From positions 7,526,234 to 7,590,233 of the forward strand of contig OZ316894.1 of NCBI GenBank assembly GCA_973895155.1: DNA of 64,000 nt. Reading direction: 5' to 3'. Source of the stretch: Marsupella aquatica. Its lineage: Eukaryota > Plantae > Marchantiophyta. This document shows positions 18,880 to 53,207 of the stretch, piece by piece. The notes under the pieces are model-generated. The model was not told the origin of the DNA, did no database searches, and saw only the letters and a program-made list of their open reading frames with translations. Positions within the stretch are counted from its first letter, which is position 1; each line of letters starts with the position of its first letter. Position numbers and translations under genes: made by a program.

Positions 18880-21800
18880 TAGTGGTGGACCTAACCACCC
18901 ATCGCTCCCTCGAGCTCCCTCACCAATCCCAGCAATCTTGCCTAAGTGCCCTTGGTGCCCAAACGCCTAGTACACCAAACTCCTTGAGCAAGCAACTTGT
19001 TACCTCGAGCACCACTAGCGGCAACTCCCATGTACAAAACCACACTTGCTCCCTAACACGACCGTCACTCAACAATCGTCACTGTGTGCACAAGCAACCA
19101 AACACCTTGGTAAGTAACCCATCCGGATCTAGGAACTCCATTCAAGACTAGTGTCTCGATTCAGCTCAATAGATGATGGTAAGTAGGTCAGCAAATAGAA
19201 TCTCCCGGGCCTGCGCAGCCTTGCCATAAGCCAAAGCCATAGTTGACACCCCACTGTTTTTTCATAATAGCCCCTCTATAGGGTGTTTCCGCCTTTGTTT
19301 CCCCACTTCTTATTAGTGGTAGACCAAGCCACCCAGTGCCCTCACCAATCCCAGCACCCACGCCTAAGTGTCCTTGGTGCCCGAACGCCTTCACGAAATA
19401 CCTTAAGCAAGAAACTCAATGCCCCTTGCACCGCTTAGTACGGCTTTCCCATAAGAAGCCGTACTTGCTCCCTAACGTAACCATCGCTCAATGGTCTTCA
19501 CTGTCTGCACAAGCAACCAAGTACTTCGGTAAGTAACCCAATAGGATCTAGATCTCCCCAAGTCTAGCATTCTAACTCAAGCTCAGCAAACGTTGGTAAG
19601 TATGTTAGTGATAGGTACTCCCGATGCCATAACCCAGAACCAGAACTGACACCCACTGTTCGTCTAGAACCGCTCCTTACTTGGGTGCAGTCTGGGTTCC
19701 CCCTCGTACCTATCCATCACCAACTGACCGCCTTGCCCCCAAGAATGCTCATGGCCCAAGTAGCGTAGCTTGTCCTAAAGCTTGTCGCAAGCTTGTCCCA
19801 ACACGTCCGGGAACACGTTGGGACCAGAACGGCCCTGACTCTAGCAACCAACTTCTGGTTCTCGTCTGCTGGTAGCCTAGGAGCCAAGTGCACTTGGAAC
19901 TCATCCTCCATGCCTACTTGGCCTTGCCTCCCCAACGCAAGCTCCCTTGGGAGACTGAATGCGGCTTGGCTGCTGTTTCGGTAGGATTTGGCAAGCTGGT
20001 GAGCTAGCCCCCGCAAACCCCAAAAATCCATGGCACCCCTAGTAGACCCAGCTGAGCTCAGGATGATGTAGTCCTCCTTGAGAGCTTTCCAATGCACTCA
20101 AGAAGTCTTCCGATTCTGTTTGGTGTTTTCTCTTAGTGTTGCGACCGCCGTGGCTCACGACTTCGGCTTGCCCTTAGCCCCCAGGGAGACATCACTCCCC
20201 TCATATATGCTTCTGGAGACCTGCCACCCCCGGACCTACTTTGGTCCCCAAAATTTTGGCCCCCAACCTAGACCCCAACCCGCATGTCTAGGCGCATCAC
20301 CAATTGGCAATGCCCATAACTTTCTAGTTATGTGTCCGTAAGCAAAGTGCCTTAGCCCGTTGTGATCGGGCCGATGCTCATACCTAGGTCCTCAGATCCC
20401 GTTGCCGCCCAAGACCCCCGATCAGCCAAACCTAGATTGGGCCATAACTCGTGCCCCAAGCGTCCATTGCCCATGAAGTGAACTCCATTGGCCTTGGGCC
20501 CAAGAGGAGCTCTAACTCAAGCCCTCAAAACTCAATGTCCGTTTGGGAGTCCGGATGGTCGACCTTGAGCTCCGAGGCCCTTTCCTCTTGACCCAACCAG
20601 CCCTCCACTAGTCTGAGTCTTTAGTGTGTGTCACCAACTTAGCGCCTTGCCTTTGCCAGTGCCACACCCCATTGCCCACAAGTCTCCCCATGCTAAGTCC
20701 TCTCCGGATGGCCGTTCCGGGCCTGTACCATAGGGGAGCTCGTTGTTGGAGTCAGCAACGCTGGAGCTAAGTGTTTAGGTACTCAAGTTCCACAACTTTA
20801 TTTGTCACTAGCTGACCGCCCTATCCCCAACACATGCTCATGGCCAAAATAAGCTAGCTTGTCCCCAAGCTTGTCCTAAACGTAGGGACCAGTTCGACCC
20901 AAACTCTAGCAACCATCTTCAAGGTACCAACTCAACCAAGAGTCTGAGGGCCAAATGCACAAGTTTGGACCTCAACATCCATGCCTACTCTACCATTGCC
21001 TCCCCAACGCAAGCCCGAACGCAAGCTCCATTGGGAATCTGAACGCGGCTTGGCTGTTATCTTGGCAGGATTTGGCAAGCGGGTGAGATAGCTCCCAGAA
21101 ACCTCAAGACCTAAAGGCATCCCTAGACCCAATTAATCTCAGGAGGATTTAGTCAAACTCAAGAGATTTCCAATGCATCCAAGAAGTCTTCCAACATATT
21201 TCATATTGAGAAGATATTGTTGTTTCAGTTTGACTTTTCTCCTTAGTGTCGCGACCGCTGCAACTCTTGACTTGGGCTTGTCTTTGGCCCCTAGAGAGAC
21301 ATCGCTCCCCTCATATACCCGCTCATATATACAAGTTCTGGAAACCTGCCACCCGCAAACTAGCTTTGGTCCCCTATGTTTGGCCGTCAACCTGGTCTCC
21401 AACCCAATCGTATGCCTGGACACACAATGAACTTGCTATGCCCTTAACTTTCTAGCTAGACGTCCGTAAGTGAAGTGCCATAGCCCGTTGTGATTGGTCC
21501 GACCCAATAATCATACCTAGGCCCTCATATGCTCTTGTTAGGCGGGGGTCCCGAACGGCCACACTTGAACAACGTCGTATCTCATGTGCCAAATGTTTGT
21601 TGCGCATGAAGTAAATTCCTTAGCCTTGGGCCCAAGTGGAGTTCTCACTTAAGCCCTTAATTAGAACTCAAAATATTTCTAGGGGTCCGGATGGTCCTTT
21701 CTGAGCCCGGCCCTTTGCATGACCTGACCAGCTCCCACGCTAGTCTAAGTCTTTAGTGCGTGTCATCAACTTAGCATAACTATTGCCCTTGCTAGTGCAA

Positions 21801-24800: not shown

Positions 24801-26837
24801 TACCAAAGCATTTCTTTCTAACTATCTGGCCGTCGACATAGGCATTGTGAACCACTGTCTATTGTAGATGAAATGTATTTGATTTTGGTGTAGTCACTGT
24901 AGTTCCATCCAAAGGTAGTGCCTGAGTGTATAGTATGCAAAGGTAGATGTGCAGGTTACTCAGCAATTTCTTGTGAAGCTCTGTAGGAACTAATATGAGT
25001 TTTTCCGACCTGCCTTTAAGGCAAGCCAGCCAGGAAAGAGTGAGTCAATTGCGTCTGCAGGTTTCAGTTGAACTTTGCTAGCTACAGTTTCATGATCGAT
25101 GTTAACAGGATGCAAAAGCTGCTGTAGAAAAGTTACTCCTCAATCTAACTTGTCTTTTCATGAAGCTCTCATCCCTTAATTTGTAGCCTGCACAATGCAG
25201 TACAGATCCTGCAAGTAAAAGAAATTCCCCTTCTGAATTTAGACCGTGTTAATGTCTGATTAAGCCAATAACTTAGCCAAAAACTTACTCATGGACTGTA
25301 GACATAGATCATTCAGAATTATATTGGTTGTTCATAGTTTCTATTGTAGCCATGGCCTGCCTGGACATATGTACCCACGCTTGCGGTCTGAGTCCGCATG
25401 GAAATAGTGGACGAAACCTCTTCACGGTTCATCAGCACATTGGCTATCATATTCTGGTGTTACCTTGTTAGGGAAACTACTTTTCTAAGTGAGATTTTTA
25501 TCTATATAATTGTTTCTAGTTCAATTTGTTAGACAAGGTGCATCTTTATATCATTAGACTTTATTAGAAATTGTTTTTTGTCTCGTGTTTTTATCAGTAG
25601 TAATCACTAAACCCACTGGAATCTGAACTACCATTCAGATTGAGTCTGACTGAAATCAGAGTAGTAGATCTATCCTAGAACCTGTCGTTAGTTTTATATT
25701 TAATTTTCAAAATTGGCTTTCAAGGGAATGCCAACTTACCCCTCCCCTCTGAATTACTCTTCACAGTTTGTTTTCATTTCATTACTAGGCTTATTAATGG
25801 TTTGAATTGACTAAGGTGTCATTAACTAAAGTCATTATTGAGTATAAGAAAGGCCTGCCCATTGGTTTTCAAAATGGATTCGCTATCTTTTATTGTGTCT
25901 TTTTACCTTGAGATCTGTCTCCAGGTTTGGAGCTTTTGTCCTTTGGCATCACTAGAAGAAACCGGCCCATTCTGAGACCCTGCCTTAAGTGACTCTAATG
26001 AGACCTTGCAAAATTTGTGACTCCTAGGTTTTGGGTGTCATTATAGTTACAAGTTGTGGACTGAGTTTTGGAGAATTCTTGGGAAGTCATTTCTATAACT
26101 ATTGGGGAAGTTGCAACTATAACTAAGTTCAGCCAACAAGAATGAAGTTGTATAAGTGACTCCCTCTACAATAGAGCGTTATATATGTAAGAGAGCCTTA
26201 GGGTTTAACACCACAATCTAACCACATTTGACCCCGCCCAACACATACCATTTAGGATATATCCTAATTTTCTTAGTTGTCAATGGGACTAAAGGAGATG
26301 CCCTCGGGATATTGTGTGAGTACGCAACTCTACAAGGTAAGTAAAGGTCCTTGGTCAATGTCAATGCTAACAGATCTCAAATATATACTCTACATTAGAG
26401 TAGACTGAATTACAATATATGTATGCCACAAGTTTACAAGTGTTACAACATAACAAAATAATCCCAACTAGCTAGGGTCCCACAATGGCATGCATGTAAT
26501 ATTAATTGGACTCATTTTTGTGTCTAAATGGGTACATTTGAAGTTATCTCCTTGGTTATCTCTAACTCTCACATATGCAAGGGCAGGTTATTTTTACTTA
26601 TTGCACGCCATGCCATGCATACATACCGTCATGTACCCCCTCCACACATTGTTCCATCTAGATTCCTTTAATTAAAGGTTCAAAATCACCAAGAACTGGG
26701 AATGCAGCTGGAACCTCCATGTACTTGGCATGTCTACATGTTATAATTAGACATATCTGATAATGGCACCCCACACACTATGCTCATGGAATGAGCATAA
26801 GAACTTGTGACAGTCCTTACCTTAATTAATCAAGCAA

Positions 26838-26921
26838 GGATCTGACGGTCGTAAACTTAATCAAAGGATGATCTGACGGTTGAAAACAAATATGGGCACA
26901 TTAAACCAGGTTTAGGGTTTA
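26838..26921 (+). promoter_or_regulatory. Putative internal promoter of the CACTA element
   Basis: GATCTGACGGT twice (about 26838 and 26870), then TGGGCAC and a telo-box-type TTTAGGGTTT (26911-26920), at the switch from AT-rich subterminal DNA to a GC-richer leader-like region. Confidence 0.4.
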
Positions 26922-29618
26922 ATGGATTCCTTCACGCCAACTCCCATTGCGCCGTGGATTCCTTTGGATTTGCGGACGAGGAGCTGATCGCGCATTCTTT
27001 GCGAGGGAAAAAAGGGGGCAGTTTGTCGATCACTAAGGCTGAAGCTGCATTGACAAATTGCAATCCCGACTGCAATGGGAGTAGTAGGAGGCAAGAAGAG
27101 CGAGTTTAGGGTGTTGCATAGACAAAACAGAATGTGAGTCGTAGGCAACATTCAGCCATTGTATGTGTTTAGCATTGATCATAGGCACTGTGGGAGGCAC
27201 TGCAGGAGGCGTTTGCCACTGCGCAAGGCACTGTAGGAGGCACTTGTTCCTTCAAGCTGGGAGAGTCAATTTGACGTTCAGCTGCAACCTGGGATCGAGA
27301 ACCAGGAGCTTCTCATTGCGGTTTGGTGTGCATTTGGACTGTTCTTGCAAAGTGGGACTCCAGGCCTGGAGACATTGCATTGATCGCCTTTGGATGTACA
27401 TTGCAGTCCGACTAGGAGGCTTTCAAGTGGAGCTGGGTTGGAAGTGAGTTGAAGATTGAGTTGCCATCACATTGCAATAGCGGGGGATTGTTGCTCAGCT
27501 TCACATACTGCTACGGATTACTACGCAGCTTCAGTTTGAGCGGCTTGGTGCTGCATCAGCCCATGTAAGGCTGCAATCCCCTATCTTTGCTATGTGACCT
27601 CGCGGCTGCAAGTTTGGTTGACTTCTTTGTGCTGTGAAGCTGTTTTTGACTCAGGTTCCGGCCAAGTTTCACCAGCGCAAATTTTTCTAAACATGAGTGT
27701 GGGCTACAACTGGTGAGGTGGAAGGGATAAGAAAATGCGCTACCGTCATTGACAACATCTCAACCTTTTACAGTGAGCGCTATTGACATTCGGCCGGCTG
27801 TAAGTGTATTTCAAGCTTGACTTTAACTTGCCATCTGCATGAACCGGCTTGCAATAGATGTTGTAGCTTTTGCTTAGCTGCATTCACCTCCCAAGATGCC
27901 CCGTGACATCCAGGTTTGCACAATGAGATAATAAGGCTGAAATGATAAGGTAGTGATTGCCAATGGATAAAAAGCTTTATGAGAGTTGCTTCAACGTTCA
28001 GCTGCAAACTAGGATTAGGAACCAGGAACTTGTCGCGGCAGTCCAGCTTGTTTACTTGGAGCCGGAGCTGGAGTCAAGTTTCACATGTTTCTTGTTTAGT
28101 GACAGAGTACTTCTGAGAAATGTGACAGCCCCTGTGAGAGCTTTCGGCACCAGTGAGGTAAAGGGTGTTCTTACTCATGCAATAGTCACTTTGACCTTCT
28201 GAGTTTCAGCAAATTGAGTTTCAAGTGCGGGCACTGAGAGTTGACCTGTTTGAGCTGGGGTCACTGAGAGTTGAGCTCTTTGAGCTACGGTTACAGAGAG
28301 TTGAGCTGTTTGAGATGCGGTCTCATAAGTGAACTAGATCCTCCCCCGTGTAAACGTCTAGCATAGTCACATGTCCAAGCTTTGCTTTTGACTCTGAATA
28401 TATTCACTGTCAACCATTGAAGGAGCTACGTGCATGAATTGTCTACTTATTGGGTTGTTTAGGGATTCAATATACAAAAATGACAACTTGAGTAAGGCAG
28501 TCTACGGAGGCGCGAAAGAGTCGCGAGGAGTCGAGTTCAGCTACGGCAGTATTCACTTCAGTTGTCTCAATGTGGTTGGCGTGAGCTGCAGGTGAGCTTA
28601 GCTGTGTGCACATTTCATGTAAGTCAGGTGGTCGGTGTTTTAGGCATTGCGGAACTTGATTGACCACCCCATGGCTAAGGTTTAAGGTGCGGACTACAAC
28701 AAATATGTGTTGTTGCTGAAAGTGTTGGTGGTGAGCGACAACTGGTATTGTTTCAGCTAAAGGGAGCACATTGGAGCTTGTGTATCCATGACCTGCGACC
28801 GATTGCGGTTGCCTGCTGTTACAATTGCCGAATCAATCACGCACCCAATCTTGCGGGCAGACACAACTTTGCGGGAGTGTTGAAGGTTTAGGGTGAGCAA
28901 CAGCGGAGAGCTCATTGCTTGGTGGCAGGGTTGAAGGTGGATGATCGGGCTGCAAGGCCAACCGGGGACTTGTTTTGCATTGAGCGATTGCTGCGGATTG
29001 CTACGCAGCTTCAGTTAGGGCGGCTTGGTGCTACATCGGCACAGGTAAGGCTGCAATACCCTATCGATGCGGACTCACCTCGTGACTGCAAGTATAGTTG
29101 TCTAGGTGATGTATGCATTGCGTGTTTAGGGTCTAGGTGACATCGCTGCTAAGCAAAATTTGTGAGCTGCCTAGGTCCATTGCCGAATGTTGCTTCCTTT
29201 AAATTACCTGGTGCCTGCTGTTACAATCGCCTGCTCAATCATGCACCCAATCGCCTGGATCTCATTTGCCTGGAGCTTCATCCGTCAGATTCAAACTGTT
29301 ATTGCTGCTCTGCCCTTTTGCCATGGGTTGCCGGCCTACCGGATGCTATCAACAGATTAAGAACAAGTCATATCCTAAGTCCCGGTGTTGCAGTGATGTC
29401 CCCGACCCTAAGATGCTTTCCAAACTCATCTTTCTTGTTTCCTGTTGCTGCTGATGTATGTATGTTCTCCCCTATTTTTGCTTACAGATTGGTCTCTCCA
29501 CACTTCTTGCTTGACATGATTGTTTTGCTCCTCCCTGTATCAGAACATGCCTTGTGCCCGGCGGTGGGGTGGGGGGGTGAACAGACGACCTTAAGGTTCA
29601 CTACATTTCTAGGAACTG

Positions 29619-29775
29619 TGCATCTTTCAGCTGATTTTAGCCGCAAGTTCCCTTGCTTTCCCCTGTTTTTGCTAAGATCCCTCCCACTAATCACATGCAT
29701 CTTTCAGCTGATTTTAGCCGCAAGTTCCCTTGCTTTCCCCTGCTTTTGCTAAGATCCCTCCCCACTAATGACATG
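29619..29775 (+). repeat. 77-bp near-perfect tandem duplication inside the CACTA leader region
   Basis: tgcatctttcagctgattttagccgcaagttcccttgctttcccctg.ttttgctaagatccctcccactaat occurs twice. A repeat of about 29 bp (cactgagagttgagctgtttgagct) also lies at 28230-28325. Confidence 0.9.
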
Positions 29776-32320
29776 CATCCTTTACTTTTCTCGGTGGCCC
29801 GTGCGCCTGCCTTCCTACTTTCGTTCTTATGGACTCTCCTTAGGTTTTCATTCACCTGGTTTTGGACTTTTTGCTCCGGTGGAATCTGTCTTGACAACTT
29901 GTGTTTGTTCTAATTGTTAATATCTCAAGAGGGTCGTCAACTAAGCTGAAAGGAGTCAAAGCTAACTACAAGCTAGCAAAATAATACAGAGAATGCTCCC
30001 AAGTCGAGTCAGGAGGAAGTTACTAAAACTAGACCTTCACAACTCTCGAAACTGGAAAGTGAAATTCAGCGTGAGACACGTAGCTGAAGGCCACAAGGAT
30101 AACTATATGGCCACGCTGTCCCCCATTCAAGTCCAAAGTCCTCTTCAGATTGTCTGAACTCCTATTGAATGTATTGAATAATTATTTCATCACAGAAATT
30201 TTCAGAACAAACACGGAAGCACCAGGGGGCTGAGGATTAGGTATTGAGGCTGAAGACATTGAGGTCATAAACTAGGTGTGGTTCGGGTGACAATGTTAGC
30301 AACTGATGCTTCTTCAGGGGAACTTCCCATGTGTAGTTTATCCACACATGATTGACTTTGGTTCTTGCTGTTTTTCTTTTGGTGTACTCTTGAGTTTGGT
30401 GTCACTCTATCCTTTCCTGTAGCCTCGAAATAGGAACACACCTGCTTAGTGGTCCCCAATCGCCCAATGATTTATAATGACTGTGTCTAGGTGATGTATG
30501 CATTGCGTGTTCATTCCAGAAGAATGAATATGTACACTTTGCACAAACCTGGACAGATTTTGAATGTTATTTATCTGAGTTTCTGTTTGTGAGCTCTGAC
30601 TTGGAGCCTTAACATTTGTGTTTCTGTGGGGCTGAGCAGAGTTTGTTCAGTCTAGAAGCTGCTGTACTGAAGTGATCAGCCTCCGGCTTGGAGGTGAATC
30701 TTCAATTTTTTGTGGATCCGAGTGACTTCTGTCCAACTGAGTTTTGCTTTGTCGGGACGATTGTGTTTGGCTAAGATGCTAGATTGTGGCTTGTCTTCTT
30801 GCTTCCAGCTTGTGTATTTTCAATTAATAGAAGTTGGGAACGAAGTGATAATTGAATTTCCTTATATTAAGCATCTTCACCTAGAAACTCAATACATAAA
30901 CTCCAGGATTCCCTCGGGACATAAAATGAGCCAAATTGTCTCAAAATTGGGAACCTGCACCCGCACTACTCAAACAATTGTGTTGGGCTTGGTGGCCTTG
31001 TAAGTCTTCTTTAGCTTTCGCAATGGAGGTTGAATCTTGCAGTACGTCAAGGGGAACTTGATCTTTGAATCATGGAACTGCTTGGTACTTTCTCGCTTGC
31101 ACAGAGAGACAGGGACTATCGTAGTCTTCATGATCTGGATGCAAGGGAACCGAACTCTATGACAAGAAGCCATCTCATCATACATCTGCTCTGCAGCTCC
31201 GTTTCTTGTGGTATCACAATATTCCTTGTACATGTTGTGATAACCTGTACGACTCTGATACGTGGACCCAGATACCGAAGTTCTTAATTGTGGTGGGCTT
31301 CTTTTTGAAGATCTGGTAGACACATTATTCAGCATTTGCTAACTTCGAAACTAGAAGGGTAACACATTAAACAACAGAGAAACTCACAACATCCTCCTTT
31401 GGTCCTTCAGAGTCTGTACTTTGATTCTGAAGTTTGACTGAGTTTTTGTTTACTAAAAGAATGTGACTGTGTAAGAGTTCCGTTTGGCAGTGGATTGGTT
31501 GAAGCACTTCATGCTAGTGTGTTGTCCACAGCTCTTCAACCAGCTTTCGTCTTCCTTGTCTTTCACCACTTACGATGACATCAATTCAGCTAAGACCATA
31601 GAAGGTTCCAAAGCATCTAACTTGTAAAATCGCATTCTGTTACATCAAGGACTAAGGTGTTGGGTGCCAAAGGAGACATCACAACAAACACGCTGAAAAG
31701 ACTTCAGGACTGGGTTCAACAAGGTAGTGAAGGTGCTTAGAGCCATAGTAAGTATGCATTCTGTATCTTTCTCTATTGATGTGAGCTTGTGCATAATGGG
31801 AGTTGTAGTTGGCAAGAGTTCCAAATATGAATAGATCCAGAAGTATGTGATCATGTACTTGCTCTATAAAGTTCTGAAGATATAAGCATTTTCTGTTAGA
31901 CCAGGCAACTTGGGAGTTGGTAAGTGTCACCTGCATCTGAGGGGCTACACCGGGGCATCAGTGGAGGTTCACTTGCACAACACGACAACCAGTGAATTTT
32001 CTCTCTGCTGCAACCTGCAAGGTGAGACTTTCGGTCTTTCTGGATGAAAAAACAGGAGTTTAATATGATTGATATACATGTCCGTCGAGAATATGGGTTT
32101 ATCACCAAGCTCTTTGTCTTAGGAAACTCATAAACTCAGAATCAAATATGTACTATGCACGTTTCATGCTATGTGTATACTATGACCTGTAGTTGGAACC
32201 AAGACAATGAGTGGGAACTGATTAGTTTAGGTGGTTGCTGTTGGCGAGGCAAGTCGACCTCCTGCTCACCTTGCTCATCAAAGGACGTGAACAGAGGACA
32301 TCACAACGAAAGCAACACTT

Positions 32321-32770
32321 ATGGTGAGGACCCGCAACGCTGAACATGTGCGACTTGCACGCAAGGCAGAGATGTTGCGCCTTGAGTATGTCAGACTTGG
32401 GATCCTTCCAGCCCAGTCTGCATGGTACTTTGAGTACCCTGTTGTTTCTAGGAACAACTACAGCCGGCCTCTACCTGCTTCAGTACCCTTCCCGACATCC
32501 TTGGTATTTGTGTCTCTTGTACATGACCCGCCACAAATTAGGTGCCAAGGGTGTGTACACAGTTGCCAATATGACTGTCCTGCCTGTAGGGCTTCTGGCC
32601 CAGAATTGGATGACCGTTCTCTTGGATGCCGATTTTTGCACAGAGCACAATGTATCATCTGGAACCACTCGCCATCCTGCAGTGTGCCTGGTGATGTCAC
32701 TTGTCCTGCCCTCCCAGACCCCACCACCGGTGACTTTGGTGTCTACACATGTTTGGATCACATGCTCTAG
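32321..32770 (+). CDS. CACTA cargo ORF1: 149-aa Cys/His-rich protein, divergent PHD-like zinc finger
   Basis: ATG-initiated intact ORF. Pattern CQGC...C...CPAC...GCRFLHRAQC...GVYTCLDH resembles an atypical PHD ending in CxxH. Confidence 0.5.
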   Translation: MVRTRNAEHVRLARKAEMLRLEYVRLGILPAQSAWYFEYPVVSRNNYSRPLPASVPFPTSLVFVSLVHDPPQIRCQGCVHSCQYDCPACRASGPELDDRSLGCRFLHRAQCIIWNHSPSCSVPGDVTCPALPDPTTGDFGVYTCLDHML

Positions 32771-33385
32771 AGGACCACTTGTCACACCGCATGCACAGAC
32801 CAGATACCATTGACCTATAGCTTAACACTCTGACTTCAACACAGAGGATATTTACTTAAAATTTTGATGTATGAGCAATTTTGGGTCCAGGGTTTAGGGT
32901 CAACAGTACATAACTTATATCCTATTATGCCTGCACTAAGCAAAATATCCTAATTTAAGAGGCTAGCAAACTCGCATAAAAGTCTCTATTGAAAGACTGC
33001 TTTCATGACTGCTTTAACCTGGTGAACATTGCAACGTTGAATGAATTAATGGGCCATGTGATAATATGCAAAATGATTTATGCCTCACTTATTTGTCTCA
33101 GCCACTATCATAACCTATTTAGGATGTATAAATTTCAACCCTTATGACACTGCTTCATACCAATCCTCTTCGAAGAATGCCTGTTTTACATGTCACGACT
33201 ATTGTATGTGATTCAAATGCATGAAATGTTGTTGCAGATCTCCTTTGGTGAATCATAGCCACAATTAAAATTGAGGTGTTGGTGGAGAAATTGTATTAGG
33301 GGATCAGTTTTGTGTGTGGGCTCAACATACCAAAAGTATGTGTGCTCTGCATCCTTGTGTGGCCATTCCAATTCATTGCAGTAGC

Positions 33386-33528
33386 AAATGCCTTTGTACC
33401 TTAAATGCTAAATATATTTTACTTTCTGTGCAGTCTGCTAAATTGTAGAGTCTATCTAAATGCCTTTGTACCTTAAATGCTAAATATATATTACTTTCTG
33501 TGCAGTCTGCTAAATTGTAGAGTCTATC
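33386..33528 (+). repeat. Tandem duplication of about 72 bp immediately upstream of the PHD cargo ORF
   Basis: aaatgcctttgtaccttaaatgctaaatata..ttactttctgtgcagtctgctaaattgtagagtctatct occurs twice, followed by an acceptor-like tgcgcag (ending 33538) just before the ATG at 33541. Confidence 0.9.
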
Positions 33529-33540
33529 TCATGCGCAGGC

Positions 33541-34221
33541 ATGGCACGGCCTAAAATTCAAGCCAAAAAGCGTGTGACAGAGGTGAGAAACACAGGTGTA
33601 CTTGGGGCAGATGCTACTAACTTCTCTGCAAGTCAGATTTTCCAGAAGGCAGCTCATTGTTGTGCCATTTGTGACGATGGTGGGGGCCTGGTCATTTGTG
33701 AGGGCCCTTGCATGAGGCATTTCCACCTCAACCCGGAGTCTGACCTTGCTGCAGAAAACAACTGTCCAGGGGTGGGCCTCCCGTCAACACACCAGGGAGA
33801 CTGGATGTGCACTGATTGTTTGGAGAAGCAGGCTAAGTGTGCACAGTGTGGGAAGTTGGGGTCCTATGAGGGCTCTGTTGATGCTGCAGCAAATGTTAGG
33901 AAATGTCCAGACCGTTTTTGTGTGAGATTTTTCTGTTTTGAGTGTTTGCCTGCTCATGCCACAGCTTGCCCACTTCATAGGTGCAAGGCATGTGGTGAGC
34001 ATGATGATGACTACTGGACTGACATAGTCCACTGTGCTAGGTGTCCCACTATGTGGCACTATCATTGCCTGAAAGATCATCAAGCAGAGGGTTATGCTTG
34101 TGACAGAGAAATCTATGATCACTCTGCACATGGTGTTGATCGATGGATATTTTATTGTCATCGCCATGCCATTGATCCTACCTCGCGCACTCCTGTGAGA
34201 GATCACATATCTTGGCTGTGA
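33541..34221 (+). CDS. CACTA cargo ORF2: stand-alone EDM2/NSD-type triple PHD-finger protein (226 aa)
   Basis: CAICDDGGGLVICEGPCMRHFH...CTDC...CAQCGKLGS...CPDRFCVRFFCFEC...CPLHRCKAC...CARCPTMWHYHCL...FYCHRHAIDPTSRTPVRDHI. The order of ligands and the terminal TPVRDH match the composite PHD of plant EDM2 as recalled. No other EDM2 domain is present. Confidence 0.85.
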   Translation: MARPKIQAKKRVTEVRNTGVLGADATNFSASQIFQKAAHCCAICDDGGGLVICEGPCMRHFHLNPESDLAAENNCPGVGLPSTHQGDWMCTDCLEKQAKCAQCGKLGSYEGSVDAAANVRKCPDRFCVRFFCFECLPAHATACPLHRCKACGEHDDDYWTDIVHCARCPTMWHYHCLKDHQAEGYACDREIYDHSAHGVDRWIFYCHRHAIDPTSRTPVRDHISWL

Positions 34222-34813
34222 AGCTGAACATTGTACATGCACAGTGCACCTGATGTGGATGTACTATTTTTTGAGATTGCAGAGATTCCAATTTTGAAAA
34301 GGAGTTGGGTAGGCGAGTTTATATAGGCAGCACTTATCTTGTGCTCTGGCGTCAGTGGCTGGGTACATGCCTATACAAACTTATCCTTACAAGCCTTCTT
34401 GGAAGTATTTAGGCTGAGTGGTCATTTTCATAAACACTTTCATCACACTGCTAAATTAAAACAGGACTTCTAAGTTGTAAGCGTATAAATTATCAGGCAT
34501 GCAATTAATCAAATTGCCCTATAAGTTTGTCATTGAATGTATCCTCCTTTACAACAAAATATGTATGTGCCATGACAAGTTGGTTGCACTTCATTTCACC
34601 ACGGATATGGATTTTGTAGTATATATTCAAACAATGTCCTGCATCCGTGCAGGTGCCTAGTACGTATTGTTCACATATCCCTTGTACCTATCAAAATCGG
34701 ACCTGAGCACCAGTGGGCCAGATCAACTCAAAAAGCAGGAATTTTGTTGTCCTTGTATTGTCAGGTGAACCCATTCTTCCAAAATTCACTGTCATCACGT
34801 AGGGTGTGTGTAC

Positions 34814-35686
34814 ATGGAGCCTGGTAAACGTAGAAAGTGTGACCACCCAGCAGTGTTTACAGGGGTCAGAGCGATTTTGGTCCATGGCCAGCATGGGTTG
34901 ACCAAAGTGCATTGGCCAACTGTACAGAAACGATTCTCTGAGCTCCATGGCACTGTAGTTCAGGACATCACTCCAGAGACTACACATGTTGTTGCAGGGA
35001 CATGGCTATCAGTGATAAAGAAGTGGTCATGGTCCTACATGAATTCTGCAATTACTAAGCAAGGCCTAAAAGTAGTTGAGGCCTCTTGGATCATAGATTC
35101 CATAGCACATAAGATTGTACAGGATACTGAGCAATATGAGTTGTGGGAGGATGAAGAAGCTATTGCATCAGCTTGGGCTGAACAAGAAGTCTGGGAAGCA
35201 AAGGCACGGCTTGCTGATCTCCAATATGGACCTGTACTCAACAAAGGACAGAGCTCTACAAGGCTGAAGAGTATGTTGGCTGAGGAGACGAAGCAACCAA
35301 CCCCCATTCTGAAAGGGCTGAGCATGGTATTTGTGGAGGCGGGAATTGGAGAGGTTAAGTGCAAAGTGTACAAGTCCACAGTGCTTGACCTAGGTGGGAC
35401 AGTGGAGGAGAATATAACAGAGGACACCACTCATGTCATTACTAAGTCATATCCCAAAGCCTGCCGCAAGTTTGGGAAGGGAGACATTCGCTTTTATGTC
35501 ATGTCCCATAATGTGTTTGTGGTTTCATATGCTTGGCTTGTGGAATCAGTAGCAGCTGGGAAGCGTCAAAACCCAATGGACTATGATCTTTTTGAGGCCT
35601 GGCCACGGAAGGGTCAGGATCCTTACAGAGAGGACTATGAGACAACAAGTGAGGAATGGGTCATTAGCGATTCTGAATCAGAGTGA
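34814..35686 (+). CDS. CACTA cargo ORF3: tandem BRCT-domain protein (290 aa), Pol lambda-like BRCT
   Basis: Two repeats with BRCT signatures (F/LxG...GTV...TTHVV/I...VV..SW/AW..DS/ES....Y.L). The second has VExG, KFGK and YxWLxxSxxxG...NxxxYxL, as in the plant Pol lambda N-terminal BRCT as recalled. Acidic C-terminal tail; acceptor-like cacgtag ends at 34802. Confidence 0.85.
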   Translation: MEPGKRRKCDHPAVFTGVRAILVHGQHGLTKVHWPTVQKRFSELHGTVVQDITPETTHVVAGTWLSVIKKWSWSYMNSAITKQGLKVVEASWIIDSIAHKIVQDTEQYELWEDEEAIASAWAEQEVWEAKARLADLQYGPVLNKGQSSTRLKSMLAEETKQPTPILKGLSMVFVEAGIGEVKCKVYKSTVLDLGGTVEENITEDTTHVITKSYPKACRKFGKGDIRFYVMSHNVFVVSYAWLVESVAAGKRQNPMDYDLFEAWPRKGQDPYREDYETTSEEWVISDSESE

Positions 35687-36119
35687 GGAGTAGTAGCATC
35701 AGTTTGGACACAAGTTTTTTTGTATAAATTAGATCATTGAAATAAATGTGATCTTTGAACTAATGTACCTTGTTATGGTTGGTGGCAGTTGGGCTTATTT
35801 TACTGTTGGCGGATTGTTGTTTCCTGCTGCCTGGGGGTGTCACTGTAAACGTACATGCAGAGGCGGTACATTTGAGGACAGCGGAGGAGGTGGTGACACC
35901 CTCCAACATTTAGAAATTTTGTGTCATTCACTTGACAATAGGTACACTACTTGCGAACCTGTTTTTTTCTTTTGGGGTGGTTTAGGGTTTGTGAGAATTT
36001 AGTACACGTTATGTTAACTCTTTTGGCAGATACAGTCAGGGATATATGGAACACAAATACCACCATTAGGCATCCTTGTTCACTGCTGTCCATGACTGCA
36101 GAGCTCCTAGCCTGTTACA

Positions 36120-39100
36120 ATGCACCCTGGTCACCACCCTCCCCAGACCCAGCCCAGGGCACAGGCACTGCCTTTGCATCATCCCACAAGGATATCACGC
36201 CATGATAATAAGCTTTGGCAGCGTGAAAGGTTACGAACCAGACTTTCAGGAGCCAGTAGGATGAGATGTCCTTGTGCAATCTGCCAAGGATCCCGTACCA
36301 GGGGTCTGAATGAGGTTTGGCGGCATATCGCGGTTCATGGAAGAGATCCACGACATCGAGTTTGGAATGATCCTGCAGAGGAAGATTCTTCCGACGAGGA
36401 GTGGAGGTTAGAATTTGATGCTGCCAATGCTGCAAGACGGGCAAGTGAGGTTCTGCCTGGTGCATTTGAAAATGTTGTAGCTGGTCTCTGTGGGTTGTCA
36501 GCTCTCCAACGGGATGGTGCTCAGGCAGCACCACGTGACGAAGGAATTCATGTGGAAGAGATGGTGAGAGACATCTTCCAAGACTTGGATGCATTTCATG
36601 ATGGGCTGGACAATGAAGAGGATACGGCTGCAGATGCAAGTGTGCCCCCTGTCGAAGAGCCTCTTGATGAGTTTGAGATAGGGCAGGAAACCCCTGGGCA
36701 TGATGGGATGTTTGGCTCTCCCCTGCAAATACAGGAAGGCAGGAAGTCTTTGTACCCCGGTAGCAAATGTTCTAAACTGGGATTTGTCATCATGTTCCTG
36801 AACATTTGCGGCAACCACAATGTCCCCAACGTTTTGGTTTCTGAGTTGTTGGCATTCTTGCGAACAACTGTGCTACCAGATGGTAATATTTTGCCCAAGA
36901 ACATGTACGAGGCAAAAAGATGCATATCTAATCTTGGATTGAACTATGATTCGATCCATGCCTGTCCTGATGGGCATGTTCTTTTCAGAAAGGAGTATAA
37001 AGAATCGTTGACATGCCCTAAGTGTGGGAAGCACAGGTATCGGAACTCAGGAAAGTCTATGGTTCCCGCCAAGGTACTTCGTCATTTTCCACTCATTCCC
37101 AGACTTCAGCGGATGTTCAGAAGCCGTGCCATCTCGGAGATGATGACTTGGGCAACTGACAAGAAAAGTGATGATGGGCTACAACGACATGCTGCAGATT
37201 CAAGGCAATGGAAACTCATAGATGAGATGTATCCCGAATTTGCTGCTGAGCCGAGGAATGTCAGACTTGGGCTGTCATTGGATGGGGTAAACCCATTTGG
37301 AGACAAGAACAACAAATTTTCATGCTGGCCTGTAACTATTTTGAATTATAACCTTCCTCCTTGGATGACTACAAAGCGATTTTTTGTTCTGATGGTCCTA
37401 CTGATACCAGGGCCAGACAGTGCTGTATCTGCCAACATAGATGTGTTTCTGGCTCCCCTAGTGGAGGAATTGAGAAAGCTTTGGGAGGAAGGAGTTCTCA
37501 CATATGATGTCCTACAGAGGCTTGGGAGGTTAAACCCATTCATCCTTAGAGCCATTGTCATTCTGACTATAGCTGACTACCCAGCCCATGGGATGATATC
37601 AGGCCAAACAACAAAAGGATATTGTGCTTGTACTATCTGTGGGCGCAATGTCACCAGTGAGTACTCCAGAGCCCTGCAGAAAGTGATATACATGGGCCAT
37701 CGTCGTTTTCTGAAGACAGATCACCCTTACAGAGAAAGACAGGCACTGATTGCACACTTTGGCAATGAGATTGAGCAACGTGGACCCCCGGCACGAGTGA
37801 CCAAAGAGGAGATCAGGCAGTGGGGAGCACTGAGGGATGACTATATCAAACGAGGGGGCAGGGAAGATGGAGTGAGTGATCCAATAAAGCGATATGGTGT
37901 AAAAAGACTGAGCATATTGGACTTGGAGCTCAAGTACTGGAGGGTAAGCCTCTTGGAGTTGATGCTAATTGGGATACATGTTTTGGTTCAGAGCATGTGC
38001 ATTCATTTCGAAGAGAGAGACTAAACTTGAGGCATTTCCTGACGCTTTTGCATTGCAACGATGCAGGAGTTTGAGCCAAGCAAACATAACATTGATGTTA
38101 TGCACATTGAAAAGAATATTTGTGAGAGTCTACTCAGATTCTTGTGTGGAGAGAAAGACACTGGTTCAGTGAGATTGGATCTTGAACAGAGGGGAATGAA
38201 ACCCCATCTTTGGTTGAGGCCACATGCCCACAGAGCTGATGTGCTCTTGAAGTACCAAGCGCCCTATGTTCTGACAGACACAGAGTGGGAACTATTTGTG
38301 CAGAGGTTGAGTTCTTTGAAGGTTCCTTCAAACTATGGCAGTGCTTTCAAGAAGCATATCATGACTAGAAAGCTTGGTAGTATGAAAAGCCATGACTACC
38401 ATATGTTGATGCAACAGGTGTTGCCTTTATGCCTGAGGGGCCTGTTGCAGAAGCCTGTTCGTACTGTGATCATGCGACTCAGTGATGTGTTTCATCGTAT
38501 TTGTGTGAAGGTTTGGGATGAAACACACTTCCCACAACTGACAGAAGATGTCGCTCAGGTGCTGTGTGACCTGGAGATTTATTTTCCTCCCGCATTTTTT
38601 GATGTCATGACCCACCTACTTGTCCATGTTGTGGAAGAGCTACACCAATTTGGGCCTGTGAGTGCTCGTTGGTTGTACCCTTTGGAACGGTACATGAAGC
38701 TACTCAAAGGTCACGTGAGAACATATTACAAACCTGAAGCAAGCATGGCTAAAGGTTACATCAAGGATGAGACTCTGGGATTTCTGACCGAATACATAGC
38801 ACAATATGAGCATGTGAAGACCAGGGTGTGGAATTCTGATGAGGAGGAAGGGGTGGTAGGTGAAGTACTGGAAGGGGCTGCAACCACAAAGAACCTGACC
38901 ATATCTATGAGAGACTTGGCACATGACTTTGTATTGCACAACACTGTGGTGATGGAACCCTGGATACAGTGAGTGCATACATGTGCTATAATCCAGTTCA
39001 TGAGCTTAAATGTTGTGTTCGTGTGGTTTTCTCCTTCAGCCTGTTCATGTTTACCCAAGCTAATGCTGTGTGGTTGTTCGTTCAGGGAGTATGAGTCATT

Positions 39101-39851
39101 GAAGGCGGCCCATCCCACTGCAGGAACAACTTTTCCAGGTTTCATGGAGTGGATCAGAGTGGCAATTAGAGAGCATCACGAGACCCACCCAGACATGGAT
39201 GCAGATGTTTACCTACTGTCTAATGCCCCTAGCCTGAAAGTGAAGACTTACAAACGGATGAGAGCATATGGGAATCACTTCCGAGTGAAGGATGGTGACA
39301 GTGCCTACAGGGTGACGAATGACTGCGGGCTCATCACTGTATTTGAGCAACAGAGCCACAATCACGACAGGGCCTGGATGGAGATGGGATATGTGGGAGA
39401 ATTAGTTGACATATGGGCTCTGGACTATGGGGCGGTGTCCAGTCCTGTGATTCTTATGAAAGGTTCATGGGTGCGGCAGGATTGGCTTGGTAACAGGGCT
39501 ACCATGAAGAGAGACAACGACGGTTTCTTGCTGGCCAATTTCAGAGGGAAATTGCCCGAATGGTCTGAGCCATTTGTGTTTCCTAGTCAGGTGGAGCAAG
39601 CTTTCTTCCTGGATGTGGAAGACTCCCCAGGTTGGCGTGTAGTGTGTCATAAACAGGCCAGGCAACGCCGGATGGAAGGATCAAACCTTGAGTTTCATTT
39701 ACACTCTCATAGTGCCTTTGATCGTCGGCGTTCAGACCAAGTGCCTGTAGTTCATGATAGCGGGGACTTCATTCCTGTGACAAGGGTAGATGCATTTGCT
39801 GAAGGAGGCGAATTCAGAGATGCAGATGCCAACAGTGTGCCTGTGCCATGA
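36120..39851 (+). CDS. CACTA transposase Tnp2/TnpD (transposase-associated, Transposase_21, DUF4218 and DUF4216-type domains), about 1,163 aa
   Basis: Exons 36120-37943, 38067-38968 and 39086-39851 (GT-AG, in phase; true start may be a later ATG). Motifs: CPCAIC...HIAVHG, IHACPDG...CPKCG..RY, RNVRLGLSLDGVNPF, DYPA, DVMHIEKN, MKSHDYH, FPPAFFDVMTHL..H, WLYPLERYM, EPFVFPSQVEQAFF. Catalytic D-D-E candidates are intact and there are no stops. Confidence 0.95.
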
Positions 39852-40007
39852 GTAATGTGAATTGTTTGCATAGACATTAGTGAGGGGAAGGATGTGTAAT
39901 AAAGTAATTCTGAAGCAACACAGATGTATGGATGGATGCCTGGTGATTGTGGTTGCATTGTGTTATACGGGGTGACCATAGATGACATGTTTTTGTGGTC
40001 CAGTAGG

Positions 40008-43000
40008 ATGGAACAGAGTGACACAGAGATGTGTGAGTATGAAAGGAAAGCTATGGAACAACGAGCATACGTGAAAGCCAAAATCGCAGAACTGGATCTG
40101 GTAAAGGATGTGGCTGAATTGTAAGGGAACGATTCTCAACTACACCCCTCCGCTGAGTTTGTGTGACATGAATAGTTCAATGTGGCACTGAAATTGTGAC
40201 TGTATTCTCATATTGGAATGTCGCAGAGCCACAGCATTTTCAAAGAAACAAAAGGAGTACGCAAGAAGGGTGACCAGCACTATCTCTGGGCCTGTGCGTC
40301 GGAGTGACAGGTTGAGCAAGAAGGTCGTACCTACAATGGCAGAATGTGGAGATGACATTGATGCTGCACAGGTGGGTGCAGACACTAGACAAGAAGATGC
40401 AGATGATGAGTATTTTCCAGAGGAAATGGATGAGGATGGGGGTTATGAAGATGAATACATTGCAGAGCAGCCCCAAAAGAAACATGTAAGTAGTTTTCCC
40501 AACAAGGTTTTGAGTTAAAAACTCTTGTTTAGAGGTTTCATATGTTCAGTACTACACATATGTACCTTGCTTAGTTCCTGACATTGTAGTTGGTGATGTG
40601 ATGCAGCGTCCTGCCAGTTCTGTTTTGCCTTCGAAGCCTGTGCATGCACCATACCAGCAGGGGGGGCTGACCTCTGATCAAGGTTGGCGAGGTGGTAGTA
40701 GTGGTAGATCCCAGGCTGGTGCCCAATACTATGGCAGGGGGCAAGCTCTAGGTTATGCCCGTGGTAGAGGCAGAGCAGGTCCAAACCCACAATCTCGTGG
40801 GTATGGACGTCCACCTCAACCGTGGGGATGTGAGTATATATCTATATGCCAGTTCTTTGTGAAGGCATGGCACTCCTGAATTTCAGACTGCATATCAATT
40901 TTTGACATTGTTTGGGATGTATTGGATTCAGACAACATGAAATTCTGTCCACCTGCCATTGCATGCAGATTCTGCCCAACCTGATTGGGCAAATGCTAGT
41001 AATGATCAGTTCCAATGTCCACAAGGACAGACATGGGTTGAACCAGGTTGGGAGGATGGTGGTGGGTCGTGGAATGAACAAGGTTGGGAAGGTGGTGAAG
41101 GTAATTGGCAGGGATATCAAAATTCAGTACCTACAAACGCTGGAAGAGGAGCAGGTAATGTCTGATCTTGTCAGCAATGGAAGAACTCATTATATGTGGA
41201 GTCCATTCACGTGGGGGGGACTCTGCACATGTATAATGATAGAAAATGTATGTGTGCAGGTTGGACAGTCGAACCATCGACTCAAGTATTCACTAATGCC
41301 CCTATGCAGATGCAGCACGGAAGGGGGACAGGTATGTCGGTGAATGTTCAGTTGTTTTCCTACAGTTTGTACTTAGTTTTCAGTACATATGTTTGCACAC
41401 ACATACCTAGAAAGTGACATCATCCGGCCCCTGTACTAGGCTGGACAGGTGGTCCAGGGTCGCAACAATTTCAGAGTGCAGTCCCTGCACAGGCATCTAC
41501 AGGCAAAGCTACAGGTATGTATGTTTGAAGAATTTTTCTTGAAGTGAAGCATTGAATGTTGCCGTCATCCATTCTGCTATATGTAGTTCTCAAGCATGAA
41601 TGGCATTGTATTTTCCCAGGTGGCTTCAGAACCCCAGGTAGGGTGAATGAAGGGGTGGCCAATACAACGCCCAGTACTACCGAGAGCAGTGCACGAGGGG
41701 AGGTGACAAAGAAAGGGAACGTAAAGTTGAATGAGAGACAATGGGTGGATGCTGAGTGTCCTCGCAAGAACCGATGGCATGCTGATTTGAAAGCTGAAGT
41801 ATTGCGTTGGTTAGATGTGAGTGTTATTAATTTTAAAAAACAGCATCCAAAAGATTGGAAGACTGTATGTGAAAATGTTGCTGCCAAATGGAATTATGTG
41901 GGCAGTGATGATGGCGTGGACATAGGTTGCCTAGAGAGTACAGCAGGTAAAATTATCAAGCAAGAGAGGTGGAGAATGCATAAGGCTTGGAAGGAAGGTG
42001 GGGAGAAGCCAGATATGCCTCCACCAGCCAGTTGTGATGATAAAGTGTGGGCAAGGTTAGTAGCTTATTTTGTAACAGATGCTTCAAAAAAGAAGAGTTC
42101 ACAGATGACCGAGGCCAGGTTGAGTGTTCAGAACCCTAATCTGACAGGAAGGACCGGCACTGCACCGACAGCTAAACGTTTGGTAAGAATGAATGGCCTA
42201 GCTATGTAATTTATGCTACACTATGTACTATTTTTTAGTGTAAACCCATACATGTAAACTTTGTTTTTTAGTGTACGTTCCCTGAATATTGATCGATAAC
42301 TTGTGTTTGCCATGCATGTGCAGAAAGCCCAATTGGGGCAAAGCCCTTCAAAAGAAGAGTTGAGGGCTGAAATTGTGAACACCCGGGCTCAAGAGGGTGC
42401 ATCTGAATCCTCCAAGCATGTAAGTTATATGAGTTCTGATTGGTAATTGAATGACCTGCGTTGAATTTCAGGTGTACACTGTATATAACATTGATTGTGC
42501 ATATATTGCCCAACATTTCATATGGAGTGATTGAACCTATACCCCTGTGTCATGTAGGGAGGTGGATCTTCACTTACAGAGATAAGTGGTCGTTTGAAGG
42601 CTGTCGAAACATGTCTTCCAGAGATCAATGAACGTTTGAATTCATTGACTGACTTGTTCCATGTGAACTTCAAGACATTAATGGAAGCTGTTGTGTCGGT
42701 GAGAGATAAAATTGATTCCAATTCTGCAGGAGTTCCACCATCACCACTTGAGGTGGCAAAGTCGATGCACTCTTCTGGCATGCCAACGACATGTAGGCTT
42801 GAAGGTAAGGCCTTTACAACTGTGTGGGATATGATTATTAAATGTATAGTTTGAATTGACATTGTTTGTTGAATGTGTTATTTTCAGTAACATATATTGT
42901 GGTTGTTGTGTCCATAGAGAATAAGACAGGTGCTACAGAGAAGAAGTATGAGAACCTGGCAAATACTCGCTGTAATTTAGAGGCAACAAAGTTGCAGTCT

Positions 43001-43714
43001 GTACAAGCAACTTGTTTGACAGAGGGCAGTCAACCATGTTTGGATGAGGATGACATTGGCAAGGGAGTGGATGATATCAATGTTGGGGCAAATGAGGATA
43101 TCAGCAAGCATGACAATGATACCATTGAGCCAGATTCATGCTATGTAGATCTTGACTCCATTGCAGAGATAAATGATTTGCAGAATGTATCATTCTCAAT
43201 GACAGGTGTGCCTCTTGTTGAGATAAATCCAACCAAAGAGTTAGTTGGTATGACACTCCCAGGTGATGAACCTGCTACTGTGACAGTCCTAACAGAGGAA
43301 CCTACTGAGCCTAGCTTCACTACTGTGAAGAGAGGAAGCATGCGCACACGAAGCAAGTCTGCTGGTGGGAGCAGAGCCACGTCAAAGGTTTCATACAAAC
43401 CTCCAAGAACAGTGCTGGCAGAAAGATCTAAGGTGGAAGTGGGGAAAGCACCTAATGCTGAGGGACAAAGTGGCTTGTTAGCTGTTGATGAGAGTGGAAC
43501 ACGAGTAGGATTTGCCAGAGTGCAGGTTGGTTCCACAACGTTCCATGGCAAGAGGATTCCCCCAGGTTATTCAGTAGTGTTAGTCACATTACTAGTGAAA
43601 CCTAAAGCTGTCCTTCCCATTCCAAACACAAATGATGATCCTCCTCAAAAGACACTTGGAGATGCTGCAGGTTCTTTGGTATTATGGCCAAGCAAGTTCA
43701 TAGAGGATCCATAA
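40008..43714 (+). CDS. CACTA ORF2 (TnpA-like / Transposase_24-type) protein, about 876 aa, with a GW/RG-rich segment
   Basis: In-phase GT-AG exons: 40008-40120, 40227-40485, 40607-40829, 40969-41154, 41260-41331, 41440-41514, 41620-42182, 42324-42419, 42558-42804, 42918-43714. Motifs: CEYERKAMEQR, WARLVAYF...KSSQMTEAR....NLTGRTG, and C-terminal FHGKRIPPGYSVV...TLGDAAGSLVLWP typical of CACTA ORF2. Confidence 0.8.
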
Positions 43715-44214
43715 CAATGTCATGCCATTATTTGTTTGTAGTGTGAGTCATGTTATGTAGATTTTAGATGTCAAGAAGCAGTACAAGAATCATGTCCTCT
43801 TGGAGATTCATAGTATCATGCATGTGCTTTCAGTTATCTCATCCTACAGTCATCAATTATGAGTTCCTGTTTTGTCTAAATTACATTGATCACATTGTAA
43901 ACTATTCCATTGGAATTCAAATGATCTTCATTTTTTAGCAAGATTGTGATTGTGTTTAATTCTTATGAATGTTTTATGTAGGATCTGCTTATATGATGCT
44001 TTGTTTCATGTGGATGTCATTCATGCTATGTTCATTTCTTGTATTCAATGTGTTATATTTCTAAAGTTAGAACATCAGGTTTCTATGTATTGTAATGTCG
44101 AGTGCTCTCTCTTCTTATGAACTGTCCCTCTGTGTTCATTAGTCATGGTTATAACTTGCATGTGAACCTTATTAGTTATAAACATGAGTATATAGAGTCC
44201 CAAATGGTTCTGTT

Positions 44215-44545
44215 GTGTGACGCGGGCCAGGGTCTCCATTGGTCTCTCCTGTGACACTAAATAGTCACACGCTAGTTGTTGTTGAATGCGGGTAAGTCAT
44301 GTATGTGACTTACGATGTGACTCGCTGAAGTCATATTGCAGTCACGTCGAAACAAGGCTAGACTCCACAATAAAGTCACAGATCAGTCACAAATGGGTAT
44401 CAAGCAAGTTGCAAAGCCCAGTATCAATAGTGACTTCCATTTTTTGGTCTCAACTTTTGCAACTCCAAGGGTCACAGCGTGGGTCAAGTCACGTTGAGTC
44501 ACAATGAAGTCACATGAGCCAAAATGAGTCATATATTGCGGTCTC
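44215..44545. repeat. Right subterminal repeat cluster of the CACTA element (AGTCAC/GTGACT motifs in both orientations)
   Basis: More than ten (a)gtcac/gtgac(t)-like motifs within about 330 bp of the right TIR, with sparser counterparts at 25985-26165. En/Spm subterminal repeats are known TnpA-binding sites. Confidence 0.75.
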
Positions 44546-44649
44546 AGTTCACCTCGGATTCTTCTAGTGCATTGTGTCTTATATTTTTGCAAGCTAAACA
44601 ATTATTTATTAGACAATGACATGGGAAGAGGGCTTTAAAGATGATTATG

Positions 44650-52853: not shown

Positions 52854-53207
52854 ATGAAGGTTGGGAAGGATTTCAAGTCGACAGTTCTGGTCAGTATTGT
52901 TGTTCTGACAGTATTTCTGTTGTGCATACCAACAACTTCCGAAGCTTCACGGACGCTCAGACATCTTCAAAGAGGGGAATCTCAGCCCCGATCTCAGCAA
53001 GATGTATCGGCAACAGTACTGGAGGGCTTTGAGAATTTTAGGAGATATATCATGGAGTCCGAGGTCGCCACCGCTCAACACGACTCCCCTGAATGCAATG
53101 TGGACCAATTGCAGGAGTGTGCACCTCCAGCCAAAGGGACCTCCCACTTCCCACCTTTTGCGTCCAAGAGGGCGGTCCCGAACGGCCCCAACCCACTGCA
53201 CAACTAG
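52854..53207 (+). CDS. CLE: CLE (CLAVATA3/ESR-related) signalling peptide precursor, R-type, 117 aa
   Basis: N-terminal signal peptide (MKVGKDFKSTVLVSIVVLTVFLLCIPTTSEA), variable middle, and C-terminal dodecapeptide RAVPNGPNPLHN (53169-53204) preceded by K and followed directly by a stop. Confidence 0.93.
   Translation: MKVGKDFKSTVLVSIVVLTVFLLCIPTTSEASRTLRHLQRGESQPRSQQDVSATVLEGFENFRRYIMESEVATAQHDSPECNVDQLQECAPPAKGTSHFPPFASKRAVPNGPNPLHN

Follow-up and report, generated by a model that had tools for sequence, protein, structure and literature searches.

Why would a DNA transposon carry, as a gene of its own, the zinc fingers of a host chromatin protein, and what could it gain from them? This question is raised by a gene at positions 33541..34221 (plus strand) of the window, the 64,000-nucleotide stretch of Marsupella aquatica DNA that was analysed here. 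The uninterrupted frame of 226 codons encodes a protein of 226 aa, P0001, that ends in YCHRHAIDPTSRTPVRDHISWL. An earlier note on this DNA had described the product as a transposon-borne, stand-alone EDM2-type PHD array that reads heterochromatin. The full three-finger array is borne out by an alignment with host proteins, in which 24/24 ligand columns of P0001 hold C or H in the EDM2/NSD pattern, and three NSD/EDM2-type Pfam finger models match the protein one after another, none of them reaching its curated cut-off. The description as standing alone also holds, such that the frame contains only fingers, and the RFD and the C-terminal methyltransferase-like region of EDM2 are absent. The label "heterochromatin reader", by contrast, is an interpretation.

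Is the gene part of a transposon? A scan of the whole window for ends of the form CACT[AG]..[TC]AGTG returned 8,922 pairs, two of which match at 14/15 bases, and of those two only the pair 25950/44569 has identical 3-bp flanks (CAT/CAT). The 18,620-bp element delimited by this pair (25950-44569) is complete and encloses the finger gene, which establishes the transposon-borne location that had been proposed. Its left terminal inverted repeat (25950..25979, plus strand) pairs with the right one (44540..44569, minus strand) at 14/15 and 22/30 bases, and the CAT target-site duplications lie at 25947..25949 and 44570..44572 (plus strand). The subterminal motif GTGACT occurs in 3 and 10 copies at the two ends vs 0.36 expected. 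In runs X1 and X3 the flank contigs terminate at 25979, the end of the last unique 31-mer that spans the left end, as expected for a repeat beginning at 25950. The CACTA-starting terminal repeats, the 3-bp duplication and the presence of TnpD identify a member of the CACTA/En-Spm group, the TnpA-like gene being below its Pfam cut-off.

The genes of the element are read on the plus strand in the order ORF-A, finger gene, two-BRCT gene, TnpD and TnpA-like gene. ORF-A (32321..32770) is a Cys/His-rich frame of 149 codons and a putative gene, with a Pfam match only at E 0.096 and with neither a usable Atlas match nor a family match; its bin is the deepest-covered part of the element in run X1. The two-BRCT gene (34814..35686, 290 codons, uninterrupted; Pfam BRCT E 3.2e-13) encodes domains ~60 residues apart and has full-length homologues that are 60% and 54% identical to it. 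TnpD (36120..39851; exons 36120-37943, 38067-38968 and 39086-39851) encodes a transposase of 1,163 aa that is free of internal stops once its two GT-AG introns are removed, and matches Transposase_21 at E 2e-70 and DUF4218 at E 5e-28. The TnpA-like gene (41556..43714) matches Transposase_24 at E 1.5e-4 within 41556-42206 and is multi-exon, with a likely start near 40.2-40.3 kb. Ahead of the finger gene, a 72-bp tandem duplication (33386..33529, plus strand) contains an intron-acceptor-like sequence and another AG sits 2 nt upstream of the ATG, such that a 5' leader intron likely precedes this start codon.

Read depth is not copy number, and equal depth is not physical linkage, so the depth values are taken only to mean that the family is high-copy and its copies are close. 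The depth of the flank contig in run X1 is 15, against 1,540-1,810 for near-identical contigs from 33.5-39.9 kb, and in run X3 the flank stands at 39 vs 4,166 for near-identical element contigs. The 5' third of the element (25950-29400) is ~tenfold shallower than 32000-44569 in both runs, and the 5' interior is thus likely to differ in most copies. A further variant of the finger gene, with 31 differences over 234 bases, is present in run X1 at a depth of 1,710-1,980; a diverged transposase contig has the matching depth of 1,912-1,949, and together the two suggest a sister family that may carry the same cassette. Such deep coverage by near-identical copies points to a family that has recently been successful and in which the gene can be studied. 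The ratio of observed to expected CpG is 0.24-0.37 in the PHD, BRCT, TnpD and TnpA genes vs 0.70 in an E(z)-type host gene upstream, and this depletion fits with past methylation of the element genes.

The fingers themselves depart from those of host proteins in ways that are common to a family. Finger 1 (C41-C93; 33661..33819) is a C4HC3 PHD that is not preceded by the acidic patch of EDM2; the 10 residues upstream of finger 1 include 0-2 acidic ones in 10 stand-alone proteins vs 2-6 (mean 4.2) in 23 host proteins, and with this loss the specificity of the finger may have changed. Finger 2 (C100-H146; 33838..33978) carries the shortened insert and the replacement of His by Cys that had been noticed before, and both changes prove to be general among the rows listed: ligand 5 is Cys in 12/12 stand-alone rows and His in 21/21 host rows, and the C135-C143 spacer is 7 residues long in 12/12 stand-alone rows, compared with 25-27 in 15/17 EDM2-type rows (16 and 18 in the remaining two) and 15-18 in four NSD-type rows. 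The segment 33982..34218 encodes finger 3 (C148-H209) together with the C-terminal motif of the EDM2 type and lies, like the other two, on the plus strand. Two AlphaFold2 runs fold residues ~26-220 confidently (mean pLDDT 75.7 and 81.0) and leave residues 1-25 at pLDDT < 50, low values that shallow alignments may also explain. Residues 96-208 of the model align with the NSD2 PHDvC5HCH structure (9gbf) by VIA-align over 75 residues at rmsd 2.8 and Z 5.1, the best Z obtained and one in the range rated common. The top Foldseek matches, PZP domains, were discarded as poor (TM ~0.2, rmsd ~13).

From which host protein were the fingers derived? Against four-sequence profiles P0001 scores 94.6-111.8 bits on the EDM2 type and 75.1 on the NSD type, and its C-terminal motif, YC..H.I...TP.RDH, reaches 38.7 bits on a profile of EDM2 tails, compared with 1.7-4.0 for four NSD-type tails. 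The motif is weak in 2/10 family members, and two proteins are exceptions to the profile preference, P0012, for which the NSD-type profile gives the better score, and P0007, which is level on both. The Atlas places P0001 in a Streptophyta NSD/EDM2-type cluster at 0.92. With the profiles deciding the type, the EDM2-type identity that had been assigned at first sight is supported as the probable ancestry of the fingers. P0001 shares its ligand order, three-finger array and C-terminal motif with EDM2 and EDM2-like proteins of Arabidopsis, of the liverworts Calypogeia, Marchantia and Riccia, and of grasses (e.g. rice Os03g0266600); 29% of 239 columns are identical to a rice protein named EDM2. It differs from them in lacking the RFD, the methyltransferase-like region and the acidic patch, and in having the finger-2 changes, an uninterrupted frame, an H3-like N-terminus and a transposon location. 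The best relatives of solved structure are the PHD1-3 and PHD5-C5HCH arrays of NSD1/2/3 (NSD2 profile E 9.9e-13; NSD2/NSD3 arrays; target TM 0.59-0.65), from which P0001 differs in having neither SET nor PWWP; the NSD-type rows in turn lack the C-terminal motif and yield the lower profile score. No EDM2 chain was returned by the solved-structure searches.

The phylogeny allows either donor, and on this point the comparison with EDM2 and NSD-type proteins that had been suggested yields a type and not a branch. In trees labeled by group according to domain content and protein length (source names exist for some rows only), 15 stand-alone proteins form one clade on a long branch (FastTree support 0.998), and SH-aLRT is 99.8 for 8 of them. 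The AU test permits two sister groups for this clade, namely the short EDM2-like proteins of liverworts (p 0.485) and the NSD-type rows (p 0.45), and a grouping with land-plant EDM2 is marginally rejected (p 0.043; the 2,000 replicates are too few according to the program). The closest named host proteins of P0001 are from liverworts. Among 123 candidates there are five full-length stand-alone relatives (217-245 aa, 37-82% identity). A wider search yielded 249 matches at E 0.001 or better, and among the best 150 of these the closest match is followed by six short stand-alone proteins and then by EDM2-type proteins with RFD domains, the best long ones at E 1e-22 to 1e-8. Longer or fused forms of P0001 were not present among 340 candidates, which is weak evidence since the wider search did find long EDM2-type proteins. 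Annotated grass genes also encode stand-alone EDM2-type fingers, so standing alone is not by itself new. With regard to the DNA around the relatives, 319 pattern matches in viral contigs and 94 and 47 in two scans of metagenome contigs included none that was confirmed. We infer that the whole clade may be transposon-borne, and some relatives at 37-55% identity could be host genes.

One hypothesis is that the gene is a passively captured EDM2 fragment, decaying inside the element as Pack-CACTA cargo and serving no role there. The same element does contain a captured fragment of ribosomal protein L18a (30973..31338, minus strand; Pfam Ribosomal_L18A E 3.4e-18), and many database relatives of P0001 are truncated or frameshifted (P0009, P0010, P0014, P0116 and others). 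However, Pack-CACTA cargo is a recent, high-identity and decaying piece of a host gene, and P0001 has its own clade and a silent-site bias, and the nearest among the host proteins found are only ~30-40% identical to it. Members of the clade that are 37-82% identical have in common a start, a stop and finger-2 changes peculiar to them, which counts against a fresh scrap of host EDM2. Among the 40 of 108 differences listed, moreover, no indel falls inside the finger ORF, so the frame is kept and not lost from the copies as the earlier note had considered; 17 of the 39 single-base differences listed in it are silent (21-27% expected; binomial p 0.001-0.019), 0/18 altered codons fall on zinc ligands, and the sole apparent stop belongs to a triple change that gives Ser. 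Passive cargo is therefore very improbable, and the finger gene is very probably a selected accessory gene of the transposon.

What would such a gene be selected for? A feature that was overlooked at first, together with the stand-alone family and the neighboring BRCT gene, is the N-terminus of P0001. Translation is predicted to begin at ATG 33541, and the Met would be removed because Ala follows it, such that the mature protein would begin A-R-x-K-x-x-A-K-K. In these nine residues (33544..33570, plus strand) A1, R2, K4, A7 and K9 are identical to histone H3. Because the Met-Ala-Arg start is conserved, a longer gene of which 33541-34221 would form only the terminal exon appears less likely. 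PMC8166343 gives the H3 sequence, defines the pattern of H3 tail mimics as iM-Z-R-x-K, counts 48 proteins that begin with it among 20,996 human ones, and reports that methylated peptides of seven tested mimics bind H3K4me3 reader domains in vitro. P0001 fits this pattern from its predicted start codon and additionally keeps A7 and K9; a disordered N-terminus, also expected of such mimics, is one reading of the low pLDDT of residues 1-25, which may also reflect shallow alignments. ORF-A begins M-V-R-T-R, one residue away from the same pattern, with A-R-K close by.

Across 20 family N-termini (P0008, which belongs to the cluster of P0160, and P0012, P0025, P0108 and P0162, which begin past the tail position, were left out), iM-Z-R-x-K stands at the start in 9/20 and at a second Met in one more, and [AST]-R-x-K is present in 17/20, being absent from the close relatives P0003 (75%) and P0004 (about 55%) as well as from P0079. 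At positions other than the anchors, A7 is found in 11/17 and K9 in 10/17 of the motif-bearing members, and the position of H3 Thr3 is mostly Pro (9/17). In seven distant relatives, 5-7 of the first 9 residues but only 0-1 of the following 17 are shared with P0001. When the H3 decamer was permuted, 1 of 2,000 permutations equalled or beat the true order with 20 sequences and 5 of 2,000 with 16 thinned sequences, the test being post hoc since the likeness had been spotted before testing; for P0001 alone the shuffle p is 0.027. Among control proteins outside the family 3/138 open with the pattern, all of them short and grass-type EDM2-like. These three, P0032, P0044 and P0093, are nested among flowering-plant EDM2 and start M-A-R-x-K, a start that reflects either chance or a parallel gain. 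In six family members the motif sits behind a short N-terminal extension and so would have no free A1. Taken as a whole, selection of the tail as a mimic of H3 appears somewhat better than an even bet.

An alternative hypothesis is that the fingers tether transposition to chromatin, either through the choice of target site or by holding the transpososome while the BRCT protein perhaps brings in repair factors, and that the basic N-terminus is only an import signal. Basic N-termini are common in nuclear proteins, and residues 2-20 of P0001 include 6 K/R and 1 D/E. The position of the PHD and BRCT genes, in tandem directly upstream of TnpD, agrees with this view, as do the full-length stand-alone relatives of both proteins and the lack of the tail motif in 3/20 members. 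However, an import signal needs neither a fixed position after Met nor an Ala at position 7, and permuted H3 of equal composition scores lower than true H3. With regard to target choice, the sequence offers a single insertion site. A tethering role is, on this evidence, rather unlikely.

The earlier note had proposed that the module, like that of EDM2, may engage H3K9me2 and recruit or titrate the processing complex with ASI1 and AIPP1 so that the long transcript of the element is completed; on this model a multi-gene transcript would pass early poly(A) sites. AIPP1 binds EDM2 outside its fingers. The sequence of the fingers is EDM2-type, and the tandem array of four or five genes is read from a single strand, with acceptor-like AG sites upstream of the PHD, BRCT and TnpD ATGs, an arrangement that agrees with such a transcript. 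PMC7472560, a review, and PMC7529245 describe H3K9me2 binding by the PHD fingers of EDM2 and a preference for distal poly(A) sites conferred by its complex with ASI1 and AIPP1. However, P0001 lacks the RFD, the C-terminal regions and the acidic patch of EDM2, and its long-branch clade lies apart from host EDM2. The functional half of the original proposal thus finds no support, and a role of this kind is improbable.

A different use of the tail is suggested by its location in the same chain as a reader, ~30 residues from finger 1. The tail may bind finger 1 of its own molecule or of a neighboring copy, and thereby form a self-inhibited switch or a head-to-tail polymer on the chromatin of the element, with no baiting of host enzymes. 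Finger 1 is acidic (9 D/E vs 2 K/R in residues 40-96), and PMC5663869 provides a precedent in BAZ2B, whose histone-like linker competes for its own PHD. Against this, both structure predictions leave the tail at low confidence, as if disordered, neither of the two AlphaFold2 models contains a sign of tail docking, and the N-terminally extended members could present no free A1. We regard exclusive self-binding as distinctly unlikely.

We therefore favor, at a probability of roughly 40%, an accessory protein that combines a reader with a decoy and likely weakens the silencing of the element, with both its binding and its expression predicted. The gene would be expressed from the element, finger 1 would bind H3 tails and the fingers would hold the protein on chromatin, where the tail, as a decoy, would engage host readers and methyltransferases of H3K4/H3K9 or, alternatively, would fold back on finger 1 as a switch; the net effect would favor the element. 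Stated for the lineage, and as tentatively, a mimic of the H3 tail joined to a captured EDM2-type reader may bait H3K4/H3K9 readers and methyltransferases off or onto element chromatin, with a BRCT gene in the same cassette. One result qualifies the reader half: H3 binding by BAZ2B requires acidic residues in its PHD (PMC5663869), and with the acidic patch lost the fingers of P0001 may no longer bind H3.

The proposed decoy-and-reader protein would belong to a known kind, in which a host chromatin domain is co-opted as an accessory gene of a transposon, and its H3-like tail could be the novel part. In PMC13547354 and bioRxiv 10.64898/2026.08.24.746577, VANC (from MAIN) and NDX-B in En/Spm TnpA are host chromatin domains that became separate genes of plant DNA transposons, and PMC13547354 provides the precedent of co-option from host chromatin regulators. 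The anti-silencing proteins VANC and TnpA are sequence-specific regulators there, unlike P0001 with its histone-reader fold and histone-like tail. PHD, BRCT and EDM2 are absent from the main texts of these two sources, and their supplements on many Spm proteins could list such genes. No report of a transposon-borne EDM2-type finger or of a transposon histone mimic was found in the open-licence literature. Other histone mimics, in viruses and enzymes, include influenza NS1 (ARSK) and G9a (ARKT); as a candidate mimic, P0001 differs from the known H3 tail mimics in being transposon-encoded and fused to its own PHD array. If the decoy model is correct, a histone-reader fold that bears a copy of the H3 tail and is encoded by a transposon would represent a different route of anti-silencing, one described for viruses. 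P0001 also offers the EDM2 finger array in a naturally reduced form, and as a small and soluble protein it would make peptide tests easy.

Several other features lie in the window. A diverged set of direct repeats at 18917-21502, with ~420 and 1,100 bp spacing, possibly represents LTR remnants, and a non-LTR retrotransposon at 57894-61410 (plus strand) contains a reverse transcriptase frame of 829 codons (RVT_1 E 2.5e-10). A short plus-strand frame at 52788-53204 with a hydrophobic start has no Pfam match and carries a C-terminal PNGPNPLHN motif, which we take to resemble CLE peptide precursors. The E(z)/CURLY LEAF-type host gene spans about 4836-13818 (plus strand), ~12 kb upstream of the element, and is multi-exon, with a SET exon that matches EZH1/2 at E 1e-11. 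Within its 590-codon exon are a tandem duplication of 177 bp and recurrent K-L-A-R-S motifs, which are similar to the ARKS context around H3K9/K27.
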